From sequence record OK283619.1: a stretch of DNA of 64,000 nucleotides. One strand, 5' to 3'. Shown piece by piece: positions 3,570-21,257 of the stretch (the stretch's first letter is position 1; each line of letters begins with the position of its first letter). A program made the position numbers and the translations under genes. The notes under the pieces were generated by a model. It saw only the letters and a list, made by a program, of their open reading frames with translations. It did no database searches and was not told where the DNA came from. Source of the stretch: Escherichia phage LPEK22.

Positions 3570-4025
3570 ATGAGCGAAACAAAACTTGAAACGATGAAAA
3601 CCGAAGATATAATGGCAGAATTGGAGCCTCTTATTTCGGTAAATCCTGAAGACATGAACTTAGACCAAATGTCATTGAAAATTGGTCGTTCGTGGATGAC
3701 TGTGCAACGCCATTATATTCGTGAAGGAAGATATCTGGAGTATCTAACTGGCAAATTCCGCCAAATAGATCTCTATTTACGCCGATTTTATGCAGGGGAA
3801 TTGCCGCCCAACGTTTATGTTGAACGCCCATTAAAAGTTCGACCCCTGAAATCTGATATAGATGTATGGGTAAAAGCAGATGATGATTATATCGAATTGT
3901 CTAGCATGCTTCAAGAGCAGAAAGCCAAAGTCAAGTTCATCGAAAGTTGCTTAGATCGTTTGAACAAACTCGGATATGAAGTGAAGAATGCTATTGATTG
4001 GCGAAAATATTTGGATGGGATGTAA
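3570..4025 (+). CDS. possible UvsY-like recombination mediator
   Basis: 151 aa, RBS AGGGAA; C-terminal region loosely resembles T4 UvsY; adjacent to uvsW as in T4. Confidence 0.4.
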   Translation: MSETKLETMKTEDIMAELEPLISVNPEDMNLDQMSLKIGRSWMTVQRHYIREGRYLEYLTGKFRQIDLYLRRFYAGELPPNVYVERPLKVRPLKSDIDVWVKADDDYIELSSMLQEQKAKVKFIESCLDRLNKLGYEVKNAIDWRKYLDGM

Positions 4026-4771
4026 TGGTTTCTCTACAGGCTTTGCGCAAACTTAATGACTTTGAAAATCGTCATCATACATTTCAGCAATATTCCTTGC
4101 CGTTTAAGGAACTGACTTGCGTAACTACCGAAAATGGTCGTCACTATGTTTCCCCCACTGGAGTCAAACTAACTTCAGTGACGACCATGTTAGGGCGTAC
4201 TGGTGACCACACATGGTTAGAAGCCTGGCGGGACAAGTTGGGGCATGAAGCTGCTGATATAGAAACACATCGTTGCGCAGACCGTGGGGAAAAACTTCAT
4301 TTGGCTTGTGAGTTGTATCTCAAAAACAGACCAATGAAGGAAGTTCTGGAAGCTGCAGGGGAATACGTGTTTATGTTCAAACAGGTTTTCCCCTACCTTA
4401 ACAAAATGAGCAAGATATATGCACAAGAGATTCCATTATATAGCGAAGTCCTGGGTCTTGCTGGTCGTGTTGACCTCATCGGGGTTTACGAAGGAATTCC
4501 AAGCATAATCGATTTCAAAACATCTAACACCCTAAAAACTCGAAGCATGATAGAAGATTATAGTATTCAATTGTGTCTATACTCAGTCATGTTTCAACAA
4601 ATGTTTAATGTCAAGATAGAGCGTTTAATCAATATTATATCCAACGAAAATGCCCTTGTTCCCACCATAATCGAATTCGATCGCAAAGACGTTATTTCTA
4701 AAATGTTTGACCGTGTCCGTCTGTATCACAAAATGAACAAAGAACAGAACGGAATCTGGGCGGATCGCTAA
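4025..4771 (+). CDS. PD-(D/E)xK nuclease, RecB/Cas4-like exonuclease family
   Basis: Motifs GRVDLIGV...IIDFKTS...QLCLY (D...D/E-x-K and QxxxY); start moved to ATG overlapping upstream stop. Confidence 0.5.
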   Translation: MVSLQALRKLNDFENRHHTFQQYSLPFKELTCVTTENGRHYVSPTGVKLTSVTTMLGRTGDHTWLEAWRDKLGHEAADIETHRCADRGEKLHLACELYLKNRPMKEVLEAAGEYVFMFKQVFPYLNKMSKIYAQEIPLYSEVLGLAGRVDLIGVYEGIPSIIDFKTSNTLKTRSMIEDYSIQLCLYSVMFQQMFNVKIERLINIISNENALVPTIIEFDRKDVISKMFDRVRLYHKMNKEQNGIWADR

Positions 4772-4800: not shown

Positions 4801-6300
4801 ATGTCTGAGATCCAAATAGTCAAAGTGAACGAAGTTAGAATGCGGATCCTTACCGAGGATTATATCCGTGAAGAACTCAACGATTACTTCAAATTTGAAG
4901 ATCCTAATTTCCAACCGAATCCGTTCAGTAAATGGGACGGCGTAGTGCGGCTGTTCACAAAGAGTTCTGGGCTTATCGACATCGGCCTGTTATTTGAGGT
5001 GTTCAAATTCTGTAAGATGAACGGTTACACCATCAAATTAGATCCGACCTTAAAATATATTCAAGATATTCCGGATGAAGAAATTCATGCGTTCATCGAT
5101 ACATTGAATGCGGTGTACCGAGACGAAAACAAACAATATCAAAAAGCGATTGTCCGCGATTATCAATTTGATTCTGTTGCCACAGCAATACGCCAAAGCA
5201 GATGTGTCCTCGAAGCTGCCACGAGTGCTGGCAAATCCTTTATTTTGTACATCATGGCGCGTTACTACAGGCAACGCAGAGATGCCCTCGAAAGTAATCT
5301 GAGGACGTTAATTGTTGTACCATCCATTCATTTGGTGACTCAGTTGTATGACAACTTCGAAGAATATAGCCACGGGACAGAATGGAAGCCATTGATGAAC
5401 GTCCAGACAATATACGAAGGGGCAACGAAAGAGATTTTCAAACCCATAGTTATTTCAACTTGGCAAGGTATCCAGAACCAACCCAAAGAGTGGTTCCATC
5501 AATTTGGAGATATCGTCGTCGACGAAGTACATACATCAAAATCAGATAAATTGTCTTACATCTTGAACAACTGTATTAACGCTGATCAACGTTTGGGAGT
5601 AACCGGAACCCTGGCGAATACAAAGGTCGCAGGGTTACAAGTCGTTGCTCACTTTGGCGCATATCATAAAATTATTACAGCGCGCGATTTAATCGATCTA
5701 GGATATGCGGTAGACATCAATGTTAATATGATTGAAGTCATACATCCTATGGCAGACTGTATTGAAATGCACGGTGCTGAGTATCAAAAGGAAATAGAAT
5801 TCCTCATTGCTAACGAACGCCGCAATGAATTGATAGCCCGAATGGCTCTATCTTTGAAAGGGAACGTCGCAGTCATGTTCGAACGTATCGATGCACACAT
5901 GATGTTGGTTTATGAAATGCTATCGGCAGTCAAGAAAAACGTATTCGTCATCAACGGGGAAGTCAAGACAGAAGTTCGTAAACAGATTCAGGCTGCTATG
6001 GAAGAAGGGGAAGATATAACACTGTTGGCATCATATGGTACTATGCAACAGGGCGTATCTATCAAAAAACTCCATCATCTGATATTGGCCCATCCCAGCA
6101 AATCTTATATCCGTGTTATACAGACATTGGGGCGTTTGATGCGCCAGCATTCCTCTAAGGATGTTGCGCGAATCTGGGACCTGGTAGACAACCTGCGTTA
6201 CAACGGTTCCTACAACCATGCTCTCAGGCATTCTCATGAGAGATATAAATTTTATCTTATGGAGCGCCACCCTGTTAAAATGAAAAAAGTGGCGCTCTAA
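4801..6300 (+). CDS. uvsW: UvsW-like SF2 DNA/RNA helicase
   Basis: Walker A TSAGKS, DEVH box, VASYGTMQQGVS..LHHLILAH; collinear recalled similarity to T4 UvsW. Confidence 0.9.
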   Translation: MSEIQIVKVNEVRMRILTEDYIREELNDYFKFEDPNFQPNPFSKWDGVVRLFTKSSGLIDIGLLFEVFKFCKMNGYTIKLDPTLKYIQDIPDEEIHAFIDTLNAVYRDENKQYQKAIVRDYQFDSVATAIRQSRCVLEAATSAGKSFILYIMARYYRQRRDALESNLRTLIVVPSIHLVTQLYDNFEEYSHGTEWKPLMNVQTIYEGATKEIFKPIVISTWQGIQNQPKEWFHQFGDIVVDEVHTSKSDKLSYILNNCINADQRLGVTGTLANTKVAGLQVVAHFGAYHKIITARDLIDLGYAVDINVNMIEVIHPMADCIEMHGAEYQKEIEFLIANERRNELIARMALSLKGNVAVMFERIDAHMMLVYEMLSAVKKNVFVINGEVKTEVRKQIQAAMEEGEDITLLASYGTMQQGVSIKKLHHLILAHPSKSYIRVIQTLGRLMRQHSSKDVARIWDLVDNLRYNGSYNHALRHSHERYKFYLMERHPVKMKKVAL

Positions 6301-10572: not shown

Positions 10573-10600
10573 CAGAGGCTATAATGGCCTCTGTTTTTGT
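10573..10600 (+). terminator. rho-independent terminator
   Basis: ACAGAGGC...GCCTCTGT hairpin followed by TTTTGT. Confidence 0.6.
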
Positions 10601-10617
10601 ATTCTAGAGAGGATACC

Positions 10618-11823
10618 ATGAAAGATAAACCACATGACATCCCATATTGCGGTGTCCGTGAAACCAAAATCAAATCAGCCCATCCTATGTTAAGTTCATT
10701 CCACCGCCAGCTGGCATATGAATGGATGAGGGATCGTTATGCGATACATGTCAAGAAGGACGTGCAATGCCTTCCAGCGCCATGGACGGATAATCCGGTA
10801 TTACGCCAAGTCAAGTTTTGTAACGTGCGGAGAGAGCACGATAGGCAGTCTCGAAATTTGATCAATAATATCATCCTCGATCAGGATCTCACGCTATCTG
10901 ACAAAATGTTCAACTGTGTATTGTTCCGCATGTACAACATGTGGGAACCTATACAGGCTTTGGGTGGTCCATGGACGATCGAAGAATTCGGAAACATAAA
11001 TCTTGAATGGTGTCGAGATGTTCTTCAGGAATTCGAATCTAAAGGTGGCAAAGTTTTCACCAATGCGTTTAATACAGGCGGTCTGAAACAATGCCTGGCT
11101 TTCCCTGAACTAGTTGTCAACCACAAGGAGCAACGCTTTGGCGGCATGAAGGTAAAAGTCCATCGGGTTGGCGGTGTTATAGATGAAATGGATTACAAGG
11201 TTGCCAAGAAGCTGGCCGAAGATAATCCTGGTGAATACAAAATAGAAGGCTGGGAACCATACATGCCGATGCGAGTCATCCGCTCTTTGAAGGCATTCGT
11301 CAACAAACACCCTCATTACTTTGATCGCCTCAGGGAATTTAGCCGTCCCGACTCTGTTTACCAGGCGATGTATGACGACATTGAGGGGCTTGGACCATTC
11401 TTGGCATACCAGATTTGGGTTGATTTTACATACATCGATGAATATCCATTCAGTGAAAACCACTTCACTATCGCTGGTCCAGGTTGCCGTGCTGGTATCG
11501 ATCTGTTATTTTTGGACAAGGACGGCATGACGCATGAAGAATGCATATTCTGGGTTCGTGATCATCAAGATCAATTGTTCGCTCAGTACGGGTATAAACG
11601 TAATGAATTTTGGTCGGCAGAAGAACCGGAAGACCGTTGCATGAATGTTATGCAGTTGGAGAACATGTTCTGTGAACTTCAGAAATATACCCGCTGCGTT
11701 GAGGCGGTGATGCGCGGGGAGAAACCTCGAGGAAAGGTGGGGTATAATGGTGGTGAAGTTAATCAGCCATTACAGAAGACTCCCGTTCGTTCTATTAATC
11801 TGTTAGAGAAGATGAAAAAATGA
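10618..11823 (+). CDS. hypothetical protein (401 aa)
   Basis: Strong RBS AGAGAGGA, preceded by terminator 10573-10600; Trp/Tyr-rich; no motif recognised. Confidence 0.55.
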   Translation: MKDKPHDIPYCGVRETKIKSAHPMLSSFHRQLAYEWMRDRYAIHVKKDVQCLPAPWTDNPVLRQVKFCNVRREHDRQSRNLINNIILDQDLTLSDKMFNCVLFRMYNMWEPIQALGGPWTIEEFGNINLEWCRDVLQEFESKGGKVFTNAFNTGGLKQCLAFPELVVNHKEQRFGGMKVKVHRVGGVIDEMDYKVAKKLAEDNPGEYKIEGWEPYMPMRVIRSLKAFVNKHPHYFDRLREFSRPDSVYQAMYDDIEGLGPFLAYQIWVDFTYIDEYPFSENHFTIAGPGCRAGIDLLFLDKDGMTHEECIFWVRDHQDQLFAQYGYKRNEFWSAEEPEDRCMNVMQLENMFCELQKYTRCVEAVMRGEKPRGKVGYNGGEVNQPLQKTPVRSINLLEKMKK

Positions 11824-12227
11824 AACCCGTAAAACATCATCGTTCATGGAAAGTATGCCCAGCGTGTTCAAGTCGGGCGACAAAATTGTTCAACATGAAT
11901 ACTGGGAAATATGAATGTCAAGTCTGTCGGCATCATTATGATGATCCAAAATGTCGATCTTTGGTCGACAAAATTTATAAATTTATCATTTTGTTGGGTA
12001 ATTGCGAGCAATATCAATATACCGTGTATGGTGATAGTTTAAGCCAGATCGATAAACATCTTTTGAAATTGATTTCGAAATACGATAAAGAAAGCAAGCG
12101 CCCTGTGCGCGTTGTGAGTACTCCAAAGGGTTATCCAAAGGGAACAAGATCAGTTACGGTTGTTGGTTACACCAGTTATGACGGGAAACGGTTCAGAAGT
12201 ATTCGAGTAAACATGATTCCCGTTTAA
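11820..12227 (+). CDS. zinc-ribbon protein (135 aa)
   Basis: CPAC...CQVC pair near N-terminus; ATGA start/stop overlap with upstream gene. Confidence 0.5.
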   Translation: MKPVKHHRSWKVCPACSSRATKLFNMNTGKYECQVCRHHYDDPKCRSLVDKIYKFIILLGNCEQYQYTVYGDSLSQIDKHLLKLISKYDKESKRPVRVVSTPKGYPKGTRSVTVVGYTSYDGKRFRSIRVNMIPV

Positions 12228-16858: not shown

Positions 16859-17029
16859 ATGACCAAACCATTTTTGCGTTCAGGAGTTGACTCTCTTGAC
16901 TCACAGTTTAAACCCAGCGAAGTTTTAATCCAACAGATTGAAACTAATCGCGAATTCATAGAACACATGCTGGCGAAGCCGGAAGGTGAAGCCGTCCATA
17001 CCACTAAAGAAGGTAATAACGATGATTGA
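16859..17029 (+). CDS. small ORF (56 aa), below ORF-track size cutoff
   Basis: ATG 2 nt after upstream stop with RBS AAAGGGAA; stop overlaps the vWA gene start. Confidence 0.3.
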   Translation: MTKPFLRSGVDSLDSQFKPSEVLIQQIETNREFIEHMLAKPEGEAVHTTKEGNNDD

Positions 17030-19238
17030 ATCATTAACATTTAAGAATGCGGTTGCGACCGTCGCGCCGTCTAACCATGTAATCGTTGTGGATATCTCCG
17101 GTTCCATGTATCGTTCACTTCCAGAAGTCCGTAAGCATCTGAAGGAGAACCTGCCTTCCCTGGTGAAACCGGAAGATACTGTGAGCATCCTTTACTTTTC
17201 ATCTCGCGGTGATTTCGGAACGGTATTTGCCGGACGTCAGATTAACAGTGCAACTGACCTCAGTGAGATCAATAATCTAATTGACCGTTTCCTGAAGCCT
17301 TCTGGTTGTACTGGTTTTGTTGAGCCGCTGAAACTGGCTGCGGAAACTGCCATTAGCCTGAATAAACCTGGTTATGTTAACAACCTGGCATTCATGACCG
17401 ACGGGTATGACAACTGCTGGCGTTCTAATGAAATCCTGGATGCCGCTGAAGTACTGCCCAAAGCGTTTGATAACATTACCTTCATCGAATACGGTTGGTA
17501 TTGTAATCGCGAACTGCTGGGGCTAATGGCAGAACGTTCTGGTGCGACCCACGTATTCGCCGAAGGACAGAATGAATATCAGACCGAATTGGAAAACGTG
17601 CTGAAAACTTCTTCACCGAAAGTTGTAGTCGATGTTCCTCTGGTTTATACCCATGCCATTTATGTTGAAAATGGCGTGGCGACTGTTTTAGCTGTGCATC
17701 CTGATGAAGAGCACCCTATTGGCCACGTCAGCATCCCTGAAAGCGTTTCTCAGCTGTGGGTTGTAAACCCCAACATGATCGACCAGCTGGATAATCTGGC
17801 AGACATCCAAGCGGCATACGTGCTGGCATTTTACGGCGTGTATACCATGGACGCCGATCTGGTCTGGGCCGCGCTGAAGAAGACGGGTGACGTCCGCTTC
17901 ATCAAACAGTACAGCAACTGTTTCACCAAGCAGGACTATTCCAACATCAAAGTCGATCTGACTCAGGCTATCGTAGACGAATCTCTGCGAGGAGTTGATG
18001 GCATCGATTATAATATGGTTCCGGCTGAAGACGCCACCACCATTGTTGATGTTCTGACGTATCTGGCTGAAGCAGATGTCTCTATCGTCACCAAGCATCC
18101 ACTATTCTCTTACAAGAGCATTGGGCGCGGTACTGTACAGAAAGTTGATGACACCGAAGACAAGTTGGCCGAAGAGATTGCGAATGCGACTTCTAAAGAA
18201 GAGCGTAAAGCCCTGGCGCTCAAACTGGCCGAGCACGAAGATTGGACCCCCGAATTCAATCCGGTTGATGATAAAGGGATTGTCCCGATCAGCAATTTGG
18301 TCTACAATTCAGAACGTCCTAACATCAGTGTGCAGACAGTTCAACACGGAACGGTTGTTGTGCCTGAGTTTGTACAGAAGAAATATGAACTTCCTGAAGA
18401 GCTGGGGACCTGGCGTTATCGCAATTACACCATTGTCAAGGATGGTATCATCAACCTGAAAACAATGCCTATCACTGCAGATTCTCCGATTGTTCGGGCT
18501 AAGGTGGCACAGGATTTGACTGCCATGGGTGTTCATGTGTTTGGTGGACCGGAAGTCTTCATTGTAAATCTGGAAAGTGTCCCAATGGTTAACCGCGCCA
18601 TGACAAAGAATATCAGTGCTGCTGAATTCTTTGCAGACAATGTGCGCCGTGAAGCATTGAAGGCAAAACAGAAAGTTCTGAAATTCTACCGTGATGAACT
18701 GGTTGGTAAAGGCAACGCTACTGGTCTGGCTTCAAAATATGGCAAAGAAGCAGCTGATTTCCTGTCAGCAAACGGAATTCGCGACTATGGATTTTCACCG
18801 AAGACTTCTTCTGTAGAATCAACCGATGTCTATATGAGTCGTGAATTGAATGTGAAAATCAAAGGCGCATCTTCACTGCCGAGCATCGCGTCTGTTATCA
18901 AAAAACAGACGGACGGTAAAAAACTGAATGTCGCTGATCAGCTGATCGCTAATGCCCTGGCTGAATACAATGCATTTGTTAAATCGCCGATGATCACCAG
19001 CGTACCGGAAGAGACTCAGAAAAAGCTGATTGAAAGCTGGATCGGAGACGCAGCAAAAGCGGCCATTAACGAAGTCCGCGCCCTGAACAAAACGCTGTCC
19101 AAGGTAGTTTATGGGATTGTTGCAGGCCATGGTTGGTTTACCGACCTGGATTTGGAAGAATCCACTATGGATGTGGAAGTTGATGGGGTGAAATACACCG
19201 TCACTGCCGAACTGGCTGAAAAAGAAGTCAAAATCTAA
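17022..19238 (+). CDS. von Willebrand factor A (vWA) domain protein (738 aa)
   Basis: MIDAS motif DISGSMY near N-terminus and vWA-like topology; start moved to internal ATG (MIESLTF). Confidence 0.75.
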   Translation: MIESLTFKNAVATVAPSNHVIVVDISGSMYRSLPEVRKHLKENLPSLVKPEDTVSILYFSSRGDFGTVFAGRQINSATDLSEINNLIDRFLKPSGCTGFVEPLKLAAETAISLNKPGYVNNLAFMTDGYDNCWRSNEILDAAEVLPKAFDNITFIEYGWYCNRELLGLMAERSGATHVFAEGQNEYQTELENVLKTSSPKVVVDVPLVYTHAIYVENGVATVLAVHPDEEHPIGHVSIPESVSQLWVVNPNMIDQLDNLADIQAAYVLAFYGVYTMDADLVWAALKKTGDVRFIKQYSNCFTKQDYSNIKVDLTQAIVDESLRGVDGIDYNMVPAEDATTIVDVLTYLAEADVSIVTKHPLFSYKSIGRGTVQKVDDTEDKLAEEIANATSKEERKALALKLAEHEDWTPEFNPVDDKGIVPISNLVYNSERPNISVQTVQHGTVVVPEFVQKKYELPEELGTWRYRNYTIVKDGIINLKTMPITADSPIVRAKVAQDLTAMGVHVFGGPEVFIVNLESVPMVNRAMTKNISAAEFFADNVRREALKAKQKVLKFYRDELVGKGNATGLASKYGKEAADFLSANGIRDYGFSPKTSSVESTDVYMSRELNVKIKGASSLPSIASVIKKQTDGKKLNVADQLIANALAEYNAFVKSPMITSVPEETQKKLIESWIGDAAKAAINEVRALNKTLSKVVYGIVAGHGWFTDLDLEESTMDVEVDGVKYTVTAELAEKEVKI

Positions 19239-19246
19239 ATTCAACT

Positions 19247-19270
19247 GGCGGGGAAACCCGCCTTCATTTT
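19247..19270 (+). terminator. rho-independent terminator after vWA gene
   Basis: GGCGGG-GAAA-CCCGCC hairpin followed by TTCATTTT. Confidence 0.55.
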
Positions 19271-19275
19271 GAGAT

Positions 19276-19593
19276 ATGCTTATGTCAAACAAACCAACTT
19301 ATGTTGAAGTAATGCGTGTTCTGGCTCAGTACGCTTGTGACAACCTGAACATGGAAACCTGGCGCAACGGGGATCACAAGGACAAGTTTGATAACATTGA
19401 TGATAATATCGATGCTTTAGCGCCGTTACGGGTTAAGAATGATCTCGGCGGTGACGATCTTGACATGATTGAGCTGGTCATGGAAATCGAAGAAGAGTAC
19501 GATGTAGAAATTAGTGACGAGTGGGTGGGTAAACATGGAGATGATCCTACCCTCGGAGAGTTAGCTGAACTCGTCGTTGTTCTCTGCAAATAA
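19276..19593 (+). CDS. acyl carrier protein-like protein lacking the phosphopantetheine-attachment serine
   Basis: DLGGDDLDMIELVMEIEEEYDVEISDE aligns with ACP [27 protein letters not shown]; Ser replaced by Asp (codon GAT). Confidence 0.7.
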   Translation: MLMSNKPTYVEVMRVLAQYACDNLNMETWRNGDHKDKFDNIDDNIDALAPLRVKNDLGGDDLDMIELVMEIEEEYDVEISDEWVGKHGDDPTLGELAELVVVLCK

Positions 19594-19602
19594 TAATCCA
19601 TG

Positions 19603-19671
19603 AAATCCCCAATAATTATTGGGGATTTTTACTTTCAAAGGCTTTACTTGAATAAACATTTGCCGTATTAT
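19603..19671 (+). promoter_or_regulatory. terminator hairpin plus early promoter: -35 CTTTAC, 18 bp, -10 TATTAT
   Basis: Hairpin AAATCCCC/GGGGATTT with T-run, then CTTTAC...TATTAT 53 nt upstream of ATG 19725. Confidence 0.55.
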
Positions 19672-19724
19672 TCAATAACTGGCTAACGTGGGGTTGGTCA
19701 GAAATTGAATAGGTTGATTATAAC

Positions 19725-19964
19725 ATGTCAAACAAGAAAGTAGAAACGGCAGTAGAAATAGACCGCAATTGGGGCTTGCTCCGCGCTAAAGGATTCCGCC
19801 GTGTGTACATGACTAAGGAAGTCTATGCTTCGCGCCGAGATGTTATCATTAGCAAGAAAGGAAAAGTATGGGTTGCTGAAGAGGTTGATGCCGAAACGGG
19901 TGTCGTCGGTAAGGTTAAAGCCAAGGCGAATATTCTTTTCGCTCTTCTGAAGCATATCAATTAA
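19725..19964 (+). CDS. hypothetical basic protein (79 aa)
   Basis: ORF downstream of early promoter at 19642-19671. Confidence 0.45.
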   Translation: MSNKKVETAVEIDRNWGLLRAKGFRRVYMTKEVYASRRDVIISKKGKVWVAEEVDAETGVVGKVKAKANILFALLKHIN

Positions 19965-20023
19965 TTCTATAAATTATGGCGGGGTATGATTACCCCGCCG
20001 ATTTGAAATGCAGGAACTATACC

Positions 20024-20479
20024 ATGACCCGTATCAATGTTATTCCCGTTGAATCTCTTTGCGACCAACACCTCCTTGCCGAGTACAAAGAACTTGCGCC
20101 AGTTGTCCTTAACGTGGTGAATGGAAAACGCCGTAATCTCAAGGGCGCTCCAAAGCAGTACAAACTCAACGAAGGTCATGTGCTGTTCTTCCGCGACAAA
20201 CTCATTTATCTGATCGAGCGCTACGATCAGCTTGTTGCCGAACTGATTTCTCGTGGGTATGTTGTCAACTATCCTTCGCTCCGCAATCAGGTGACGTCTG
20301 ACAATCGACAGGAACTCGCGATCTATTTGAACGATTACCAACCGACCCAGGCAGCAGTAGAAGAGAATGCCGAGCGCATTGTCGAACGTCTGAATGGCAT
20401 GGGCAAGATCACGTATAACAGAACACCAGTAGATCCATCCTACATGGTGAACGTTATGAAACAAACATTCCAATTTTGA
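20024..20479 (+). CDS. denV: endonuclease V (pyrimidine dimer DNA glycosylase, DenV)
   Basis: MTRINVIPVESLCDQHLLAEYKELAPV matches T4 DenV N-terminus; start moved to internal ATG with conserved initiation motif. Confidence 0.88.
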   Translation: MTRINVIPVESLCDQHLLAEYKELAPVVLNVVNGKRRNLKGAPKQYKLNEGHVLFFRDKLIYLIERYDQLVAELISRGYVVNYPSLRNQVTSDNRQELAIYLNDYQPTQAAVEENAERIVERLNGMGKITYNRTPVDPSYMVNVMKQTFQF

Positions 20480-20491
20480 AGAGACTATATC

Positions 20492-20770
20492 ATGACAGAT
20501 CAAAGAAGTATTGCTCGTTCGGAAATCAAAGATATTATACAGAGCAAAACCAACGAAACTCATGCTCAATCCAGAATGCTATCTCGATTTGTTGAAATTA
20601 AGTTTGACATTGAAGAGAATAACAATCGGAGAGCGCTGGAGGGAATGTTGGCGATTATCTTGGGCCATGTCACCAATTCAGCATACGACATGGATGATTT
20701 AACTCGTTTGTTGAACGCCCAGAATAACGTTGGGAATTCTGTTCGCGAATTGCTGTTTAAGTCCGAATGA
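20492..20770 (+). CDS. hypothetical protein (92 aa)
   Basis: ORF only. Confidence 0.4.
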   Translation: MTDQRSIARSEIKDIIQSKTNETHAQSRMLSRFVEIKFDIEENNNRRALEGMLAIILGHVTNSAYDMDDLTRLLNAQNNVGNSVRELLFKSE

Positions 20771-20807
20771 ACTAACTAAGGGATAATCCTATATCCCGAG
20801 GTGTGTC

Positions 20808-21257
20808 ATGTTCCTTACATCCTTTATTGACTGGATGAATATCATAAATGGCCTGAGGATTCCTGTTGGGAACCTCGGGCTTTCTCGTTCTTCTATGCCG
20901 CAAATCGATGCCGACAAACAAGAAGATTTTCACAAATATCTTGAAGACAACGGCGTGTCCATAGATGCTGCGCAAGTGCCCATCAAAATGCTTCGTCTTA
21001 CCCAGAACGAAATCAATAAAATGAAGGTCTGGAAGATTATGAAGCAGATCAGAAATAAGAAGCCCATGGGTCGAGTTTGGGTGTCTTCTGACAATTACGT
21101 TGTTGACGGGTCTCACCGATTTGTCGCTGCGTTGAACATGGACGGCAAACAGCGCATGAAGGTCTACAAAGTTGATTTGCCAGCGATGGAATTTGTTAAA
21201 CTCGCTAAACAGTTTCAGGGTGTGCGATACAGAACGGTCAGCGATACCCGTTTCTGA
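20808..21257 (+). CDS. ParB-like nuclease domain protein
   Basis: LRLTQNEIN...YVVDGSHRFVAALN resembles ParB/Srx N-terminal domain. Confidence 0.4.
   Translation: MFLTSFIDWMNIINGLRIPVGNLGLSRSSMPQIDADKQEDFHKYLEDNGVSIDAAQVPIKMLRLTQNEINKMKVWKIMKQIRNKKPMGRVWVSSDNYVVDGSHRFVAALNMDGKQRMKVYKVDLPAMEFVKLAKQFQGVRYRTVSDTRF

Follow-up and report, generated by a model that had tools for sequence, protein, structure and literature searches.

Acyl carrier protein (ACP) is highly connected in bacteria: the synthesis of fatty acids, lipid A, biotin, and lipoate draws on it, and it has SpoT, IscS, and MukB as binding partners. The acidic face of its recognition helix II is the surface on which client enzymes dock, and helix III of the ACP fold borders the entrance for the phosphopantetheine arm and the acyl chain. 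In a canonical ACP complex, an arginine of the partner protein contacts the negatively charged phosphate of the phosphopantetheine (10.1101/2021.04.13.439690). A passage of a review reports that apo-ACP inhibits the growth of Escherichia coli via glycerol-3-phosphate acyltransferase (PMC3896788, citing Keating et al. 1995). MukB binds the E. coli ACP, AcpP, which in its apo form stimulates the MukB ATPase as much as in its holo form (PMC8602292), and the MukBEF complex is the target of a phage protein, gp5.9 of T7 (PMC7617805). ACPs that lack the attachment serine have been described in a study of the mitochondrial ACP (mACP) of Plasmodium falciparum, in which they were not found outside apicomplexans and one chromerid (10.1101/2021.04.13.439690).

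Here, we describe a gene for a serine-less ACP-like protein in a stretch of 64,000 nucleotides from Escherichia phage LPEK22 (OK283619.1), which is called the window below. The gene itself is already known, and in many phage records it carries the label “acyl carrier protein.” What is new here is the universal change of the attachment serine to Asp or Glu, the retention of the docking helix, the remodeling of helix III, and the occurrence of the D[D/E]LD motif beyond this family. Literature searches for a phage serine-less ACP, an ACP mimic, toxicity or growth inhibition, interaction data, and Kuttervirus transcriptomics returned nothing relevant; the nearest results were the binding of an unspecified phage ACP to FabZ, predicted by machine learning, and the detection of an ortholog of the ACP-like protein by a single peptide in a virion proteome.

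The ACP-like gene and its genomic neighborhood

By nucleotide identity, the window is a Kuttervirus genome, belonging to the ViI-like myoviruses of the family Ackermannviridae. Positions 18000 to 21000 are 99.3% identical to Salmonella phage heyday, and many other Kuttervirus genomes are likewise close. This region matches 275 phage records in all, with Salmonella, Klebsiella, Escherichia, Dickeya, Serratia, and Shigella as hosts, and the ACP-like gene is kept in approximately 270 phage genomes belonging to at least three Ackermannviridae subclades. The product matches PHROG 4154, which is named acyl carrier protein, over its full length (E = 1.8e-56; residues 3 to 105 against positions 1 to 108 of the 108 in the profile). 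The gene has two in-frame ATG codons, and the second is favored by the RefSeq annotation of phage heyday and by the N termini of the orthologs (MSKN...). The coordinates of the gene, its parts, and its surroundings are collected in Table 1.

Table 1. Features of the ACP-like gene and the surrounding region, in positions of the window
Feature	Position	Strand	Details and basis
5-Hydroxymethyluracil DNA kinase, ViI gp67 homolog	10597-11823	+	PF18723, E = 1.7e-83; ~7.5 kb upstream
135-aa zinc-ribbon-like ORF after the kinase gene	11820-12227	+	
vWA-domain protein, upstream neighbor	17022-19238	+	738 aa (750 aa from GTG at 16986); PF00092, E = 4.1e-7; phrog_2426
GC-rich hairpin between the vWA and ACP-like genes	19247-19262	+	-13.8 kcal/mol, z = -2.95; terminator-like on both strands
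Alternative in-frame ATG of the ACP-like gene	19276	+	ORF 19276-19593, 105 aa
ACP-like CDS	19282-19593	+	103 aa plus stop; ORF list, RefSeq phage heyday gp061
D54-E80: pre-helix loop, recognition helix II, start of helix III (DLGGDDLDMIELVMEIEEEYDVEISDE)	19441-19521	+	AcpP alignment
GAT codon, Asp at the AcpP Ser36 position	19456-19458	+	Sequence, alignments, ortholog codons
Family-specific segment W81-T90 (WVGKHGDDPT)	19522-19551	+	Family alignments
12-bp hairpin and T-run directly after the ACP-like stop codon	19602-19633	+	Intrinsic-terminator-like; hairpin 19602-19629, -15.3 kcal/mol, z = -3.68
Small basic 79-aa protein, downstream	19725-19964	+	phrog_804; no Pfam match
DenV-type pyrimidine-dimer DNA glycosylase, downstream	19976-20479	+	

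An earlier reading made from the sequence only had assigned the gene a terminator of its own, and terminator-like hairpins do lie on both sides of it, the downstream one being followed by a T-run. A sigma-70-like promoter match is located at 19643 to 19671, ahead of the gene for the small basic 79-aa protein, and a GC-rich hairpin at 19978 to 19999 overlaps the start of the glycosylase gene, with a terminator-like score on the minus strand. No T4-type late promoter (TATAAATA) was found near the ACP-like gene.

Around the ACP-like gene, the same strand carries genes for replication and nucleotide metabolism, in a block that also holds genes for a clamp loader, a helicase, MazG, and the homolog of ViI gp67, a 5-hydroxymethyluracil (5-hmdU) DNA kinase. 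The gp67-type kinase catalyzes the first step in the pathway of thymidine hypermodification. A tie between the ACP-like gene and this pathway was considered and rejected: the kinase homolog lies upstream, yet the ViI pathway has been rebuilt from two kinases, a serine:DNA transferase, and a decarboxylase, with no need for the ACP-like protein, and the paper describing this has no relevant mention of a carrier protein or a vWA protein (PMC8989533). The annotation of the reference genome shows no genomic association of the ACP-like gene with fab, pls, or acpS genes.

In the upstream neighbor, the vWA domain is N-terminal, with the Pfam match limited to the first ~195 residues of the 738-aa protein. 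Homologs of this protein are found in Ackermannviridae and in Straboviridae (the KP15 and Cronobacter groups and Shewanella phage Thanatos-2, at 47 to 49% identity), and others are found in Bacillus phage AR9 and in Rhizobium phages (24 to 26% identity).

Homology to ACP and predicted fold

Profile searches and structure prediction support the proposal, made in the sequence-only reading, that the gene encodes an ACP homolog. The Pfam model PF00550 (PP-binding) matches the protein at 30.7 bits (E = 3.8e-7), above its gathering cutoff of 20.8, and precomputed hits to PF00550 or PF14573 are present on nearly all of the orthologs. The NCBIfam AcpP models (TIGR00517 and NF002148 to NF002151) give 32 to 40 bits, far under their cutoffs of 66 to 106. 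BLASTP aligns E. coli AcpP without gaps to the phage segment DLGGDDLDMIELVMEIEEEYDVEISDEWVGK, in helices II and III, with 19 identities in 31 positions (pairwise E = 1e-10). This alignment sets Asp61 in the 105-aa numbering, or Asp59 in the 103-aa numbering, opposite Ser36 of mature AcpP, and phmmer alignments with the ACP of Bacillus subtilis place the same Asp at the attachment site, so that the replacement of the phosphopantetheine-bearing serine by Asp stands as originally proposed.

The AlphaFold2 model, built from a 17-sequence alignment, has a mean pLDDT of 87.8 and a pTM of 0.82 and shows a predicted four-helix ACP fold, with a long helix I (residues 7 to 21), helix II at 59 to 73, helix III at 79 to 84, and helix IV at 91 to 102. 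When this model was compared with the PDB by using Foldseek, all 50 of the best 50 matches were ACPs, with target-normalized TM scores ranging from 0.54 to 0.83, and the fold matches among the viral structures of BFVD were phage ACPs. Among the PDB sequence matches, the B. subtilis ACP scored best, at 36.6 bits, and host-type AcpP reached 28.5 bits. The phage protein is therefore no recent duplicate of host AcpP adapted to its clients, a point that counts against competition with AcpP as its role.

Loss of the attachment serine and its fixation as Asp or Glu

The GAT codon at the attachment site is two substitutions away from every Ser codon (TCN and AGY), a point from which the sequence-only reading had already argued that a simple read error was not at work. 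Comparison of 25 orthologous loci strengthens this argument, with GAT in 10, GAC in 1, and GAA in 14, and a read error or a strain-specific mutation is thereby ruled out. The LGGD[D/E]LD motif is present in all 27 cluster representatives retrieved from a collection of 5.8 billion proteins, and the distant full-length relatives found by an HMM search of 1.84 billion representatives, at 33 to 50% identity, also have Asp or Glu. A site restricted to these two residues extends across Kuttervirus, the Agtrevirus/Limestonevirus/Taipeivirus group, phage CRW-SP2, and metagenomic relatives down to ~33% identity. In Miltonvirus (Serratia phages phiMAM1 and KNP4), the ACP-like protein is divergent and has 90 aa, the site reads DELDRIE, and the family C-terminal motif is absent. 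The substitution is thus shared by related phages, as Asp or Glu, in every ortholog examined; Ser at the attachment site was found in none of the Ackermannviridae orthologs examined, Miltonvirus included, and the family alignments contain no alternative conserved Ser elsewhere in the protein.

Pairwise dN/dS values, calculated for pairs with unsaturated dS, range from 0.02 to 0.14, indicating strong purifying selection, and 33 positions are invariant in the 17-sequence alignment. Judged by these values, the ACP-like gene encodes a functional, selected protein. The pattern of substitution at the old attachment site indicates that an acidic side chain is required there, beyond the mere absence of Ser. 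Because Ser is missing at this site and none is conserved elsewhere in the family, we strongly infer that the protein does not undergo phosphopantetheinylation at the canonical site and hence does not carry acyl chains.

Retained docking helix and remodeled helix III

In the 103-aa numbering, 14 positions of helices II and III are invariant in the family, namely, L55, G56, G57, D58, L60, D61, I63, E64, M67, E70, E71, V75, I77, and D79. Their AcpP counterparts, in the same order, are L32, G33, A34, D35, L37, D38, V40, E41, M44, E47, E48, T52, I54, and D56, and 11 of the 14 are identical. The acidic recognition helix II is kept, with invariant D58, D61, E64, E70, and E71 corresponding to D35, D38, E41, E47, and E48 of AcpP. 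The region of helix I and loop I is ~25 residues longer than in AcpP, and helix III with its loop is longer by three residues and has invariant W81, G83, D87, D88, P89, and T90, which adjoin the former attachment site. Since helix III flanks the acyl entrance, the family-specific changes cluster around the disabled site.

The same motif in other phages and in exported bacterial proteins

A second phage lineage, found in metagenomes only, encodes ACP-like proteins of 95 to 99 aa with a G[G/A]DELD motif and the DDP motif of the Ackermannviridae family (P0041, P0044, and P0203; P0044 is encoded at 6001 to 6297 of contig L090). These proteins have a short loop I, unlike the Ackermannviridae family. 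The L090 contig is phage-like, with ThyX, HNH endonucleases, and many PHROG families, and has no neighboring genes in common with the window. Against isolated phages, the best matches of this lineage include Ackermannviridae proteins, with 52 to 55% identity over the shared core.

The profile searches unexpectedly yielded dozens of ACP-like proteins of bacterial origin in which GAD[E/D]LD replaces GADSLD (P0099, P0115, P0124, P0140 to P0142, P0150, P0151, P0164, P0168, and P0184 to P0204; loci L092 at 5001 to 5342 and L097 at 4001 to 4384), and, as query profiles with Asp or Glu at the site enrich for such proteins, the counts show the existence of the class and not its frequency. These bacterial proteins carry N-terminal signal peptides or lipoprotein boxes (LLTGCS, LVGCQ, and FVGCG) and are, by these signals, apparently exported pseudo-ACPs. 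One of them comes from the planctomycete Anatilimnocola floriformis. In addition, two related bacterial proteins are encoded in methylcitrate loci, with prpC on one side and prpD on the other and with start and stop codons that overlap.

Among 46 distinct ACP-like proteins from other viral contigs, the residue at the site is Ser in 42 cases, Ala in 3, and Glu in 1, so the loss of Ser is a lineage-specific trait. The Ala proteins read LGGDALD or LKGDALD at the site and the Glu protein reads LSFDELD (Ala/Glu loci, L038 at 5935 to 6156; L056 at 1503 to 1742; L062 at 4361 to 4600, with identical copies in L063, L068, L069, and L071; and L026 at 5986 to 6300). As judged from these sequences, blocking of the attachment site may have arisen several times in phages. 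BFVD also holds an uncharacterized 81-aa protein of Delftia phage PhiW-14 (C9DG88) with a predicted ACP-like fold (Foldseek probability, 0.75); PhiW-14 also has hypermodified thymidine and is a peripheral relative of Ackermannviridae.

A putative protein-binding ACP and the alternatives

The explanation that we favor, tentatively and with slightly less than even confidence, is that the protein is a pseudo-ACP that acts by binding other proteins, probably in competition with host AcpP at its clients, and that its carboxylate mimics the phosphate of the cofactor. We infer the binding mode, the phosphate mimicry, and the host-protein target as follows. Having kept the acidic recognition helix II but being unable to carry acyl chains, the protein would act purely by protein-protein binding during infection. 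It would occupy the ACP-docking site of at least one host AcpP client and would serve there as a competitor or modulator. The candidates are clients whose binding to ACP does not depend on the prosthetic group, such as the acyltransferase PlsB, MukB, or AcpS. In place of the holo-ACP phosphodiester, the Asp or Glu at the former site of attachment would provide the negative charge, and the invariant Trp-Gly...Asp-Asp-Pro-Thr segment would reshape the former acyl-chain entrance on the side of helix III.

Phosphate mimicry would account for the tolerance of acidic residues only, but the restriction to Asp and Glu could instead reflect the stability of the helix N terminus, and three other viral ACP-like proteins have Ala at the site. 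A protein-binding role is made plausible by the inhibition exerted by apo-ACP, by the equal activation of MukB by apo- and holo-AcpP, and by the serine-less ACP of Plasmodium. With its recognition helix preserved, the ACP-like protein is consistent with the decoy or mimic function proposed in the sequence-only reading. Host AcpP is present at roughly 100 µM (PMC8602292), and against this level a simple competitor would have to be strongly expressed or bind more tightly. A more far-reaching proposal, which is possible though doubtful, is an unrecognized class of phosphomimetic pseudo-ACPs, with this protein as its type example. The class would comprise phage decoys, in Ackermannviridae and at least one further lineage, that hijack the AcpP network, perhaps through PlsB and the shutdown of phospholipid synthesis or through MukBEF. 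It would also comprise a branch of lipoproteins exported by planctomycete-like bacteria, which would put the scaffold to use outside the cell, where the cofactor could not be loaded.

The main alternative, which we consider unlikely although it deserves to be taken seriously, is that the protein is an accessory or structural subunit of a phage complex, for instance, one that includes the adjacent vWA protein or belongs to the machinery of replication or DNA modification. The vWA gene ends ~40 nt upstream of the ACP-like gene, and this adjacency holds in the Ackermannviridae genomes examined, including those of the most distant relatives; however, gene order is conserved throughout the family, which makes the adjacency weak evidence, and in Miltonvirus, three small genes lie between the two. 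Moreover, the Straboviridae phages KP15 and Thanatos-2, which have vWA homologs with 47 to 49% identity, show neither an ACP-like neighbor nor a tblastn hit to the ACP-like protein in their genomes, and the second phage lineage with the same motif shares no neighbors with the locus in the window. The position of the gene among replication and nucleotide-metabolism genes, downstream of the 5-hmdU DNA kinase homolog, would suit a subunit of the DNA-modification machinery, but ViI hypermodification was reconstituted without the ACP-like protein (PMC8989533). There are precedents for ACP as a structural subunit, in mitochondrial complex I, chains of which were among the PDB sequence matches, in NFS1-ISD11, with MukB (PMC8602292), and in the Plasmodium mACP-Isd11 complex.

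It is improbable that the protein uses an ACP scaffold to act as a generic polyanionic decoy, that is, a mimic of DNA or another nucleic acid or an anti-restriction protein of the Ocr/ArdA/gp5.9 kind. Acidic mimics are common in phages, the gene sits among DNA-metabolism genes, and the protein is strongly acidic, with a pI of 4.09, 26 Asp and Glu residues versus 9 Lys and Arg residues, and a net charge of about -17. However, E. coli AcpP is alike in these respects (pI 4.05; charge about -15), so the charge comes with the fold and is nothing new. Conservation falls on the ACP docking helix and on the Trp/Gly/Asp-Asp-Pro motif and forms no periodic charge array, the fold matches ACPs only, and the PADLOC defense models give no hit to the protein. 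The DNA mimicry that the sequence-only reading had offered as one option therefore finds no specific support, the negative charge being essentially no greater than that of an ordinary AcpP.

More improbable still is that the protein remains a carrier, either through modification of a noncanonical residue or with the Asp or Glu carboxylate as the tether. The model for such a tether is LysW, an amino-group carrier whose substrates are attached via a Glu carboxylate and whose fold differs from that of ACP. The strict requirement for an acidic residue at the old attachment site would fit this idea, and the phage makes amino-acid-derived DNA modifications; however, the hypermodification runs on free serine and four enzymes (PMC8989533). 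In addition, the family has no conserved Ser, Thr, or Cys elsewhere, and for the exported bacterial proteins that share the motif, loading outside the cell would not be possible. The annotation of the reference phage genome includes no phosphopantetheinyl transferase, no fatty-acid, lipid A, polyketide, or other ACP-dependent enzyme, and no ATP-grasp ligase or other loading enzyme, and tblastn searches with AcpS and Sfp gave a best E value of about 1.

A last reading, in which the gene is what remains of a phage ACP that once worked and is now decaying or without function, is hardly credible: the catalytically essential residue is gone, but the selection analysis (dN/dS of 0.02 to 0.14), together with the 33 invariant positions in 17 sequences, the retention of the gene in ~270 genomes of at least three subclades, and a site that varies between Asp and Glu only, effectively refutes it.

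Implications

If the preferred reading of the protein as a binding-only pseudo-ACP is true, an unloadable viral ACP with an intact docking helix would be a ready-made probe and inhibitor of the ACP network, and its use would be a previously undescribed kind of host takeover. With ~270 phage genomes, a second phage lineage, and many exported bacterial proteins all showing the acidic replacement, reuse of the ACP scaffold appears to be recurrent and to have been overlooked. The database label “acyl carrier protein / auxiliary metabolic gene” is misleading for these phage genes. Ackermannviridae are widely used as therapeutic and biocontrol phages, and their host-takeover genes therefore matter.

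Comparison with known systems

The phage protein shares with the bacterial type II ACPs (E. coli AcpP and B. subtilis ACP; PDB 2X2B, 1HY8, and 1F80) a common fold, a near-identical helix II and start of helix III, and a similar size class and acidity. It differs from them in having Asp in place of Ser36, a longer helix I and loop I, and a longer helix III with the WxG...DDPT motif. The ordinary phage ACPs, such as those of the phrog_5934 type, that of ICP1, and the 71-aa ACPs of marine phages, are likewise small ACP-fold proteins that have been labeled auxiliary metabolic or host-takeover genes. Most of those sampled (42 of 46) keep the Ser, as the ICP1 protein does at its attachment site, and are thus potentially made holo by a host enzyme.

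The mACP of P. falciparum resembles the phage protein in that the attachment Ser has been lost, the helix II glutamates have been kept, and the protein works by protein binding alone (10.1101/2021.04.13.439690). Its replacement is a Phe, which is hydrophobic and packs into the LYR-motif partner Isd11, whereas the phage site is always acidic, and the two proteins also differ in organism, partner, and context. With E. coli apo-ACP, the phage protein shares the absence of the prosthetic group, and in the review passage cited above, such an ACP inhibits a client, glycerol-3-phosphate acyltransferase (PMC3896788), indicating that a nonmodifiable ACP can be a potent antagonist. However, apo-ACP inhibition is an artifact of overproducing the host's own protein, whereas the phage has a dedicated gene for a protein that is permanently blocked and carries an acidic substitute. 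The T7 proteins gp5.9 and Ocr are comparable in being small and acidic and in blocking a host machine through imitation of one of the cell's ligands, and the machine blocked by gp5.9, MukBEF, is a complex that also contains AcpP (PMC7617805, PMC8602292). Those two proteins are DNA mimics with unrelated folds, whereas the proposed ligand imitated by the phage ACP-like protein would be ACP itself.
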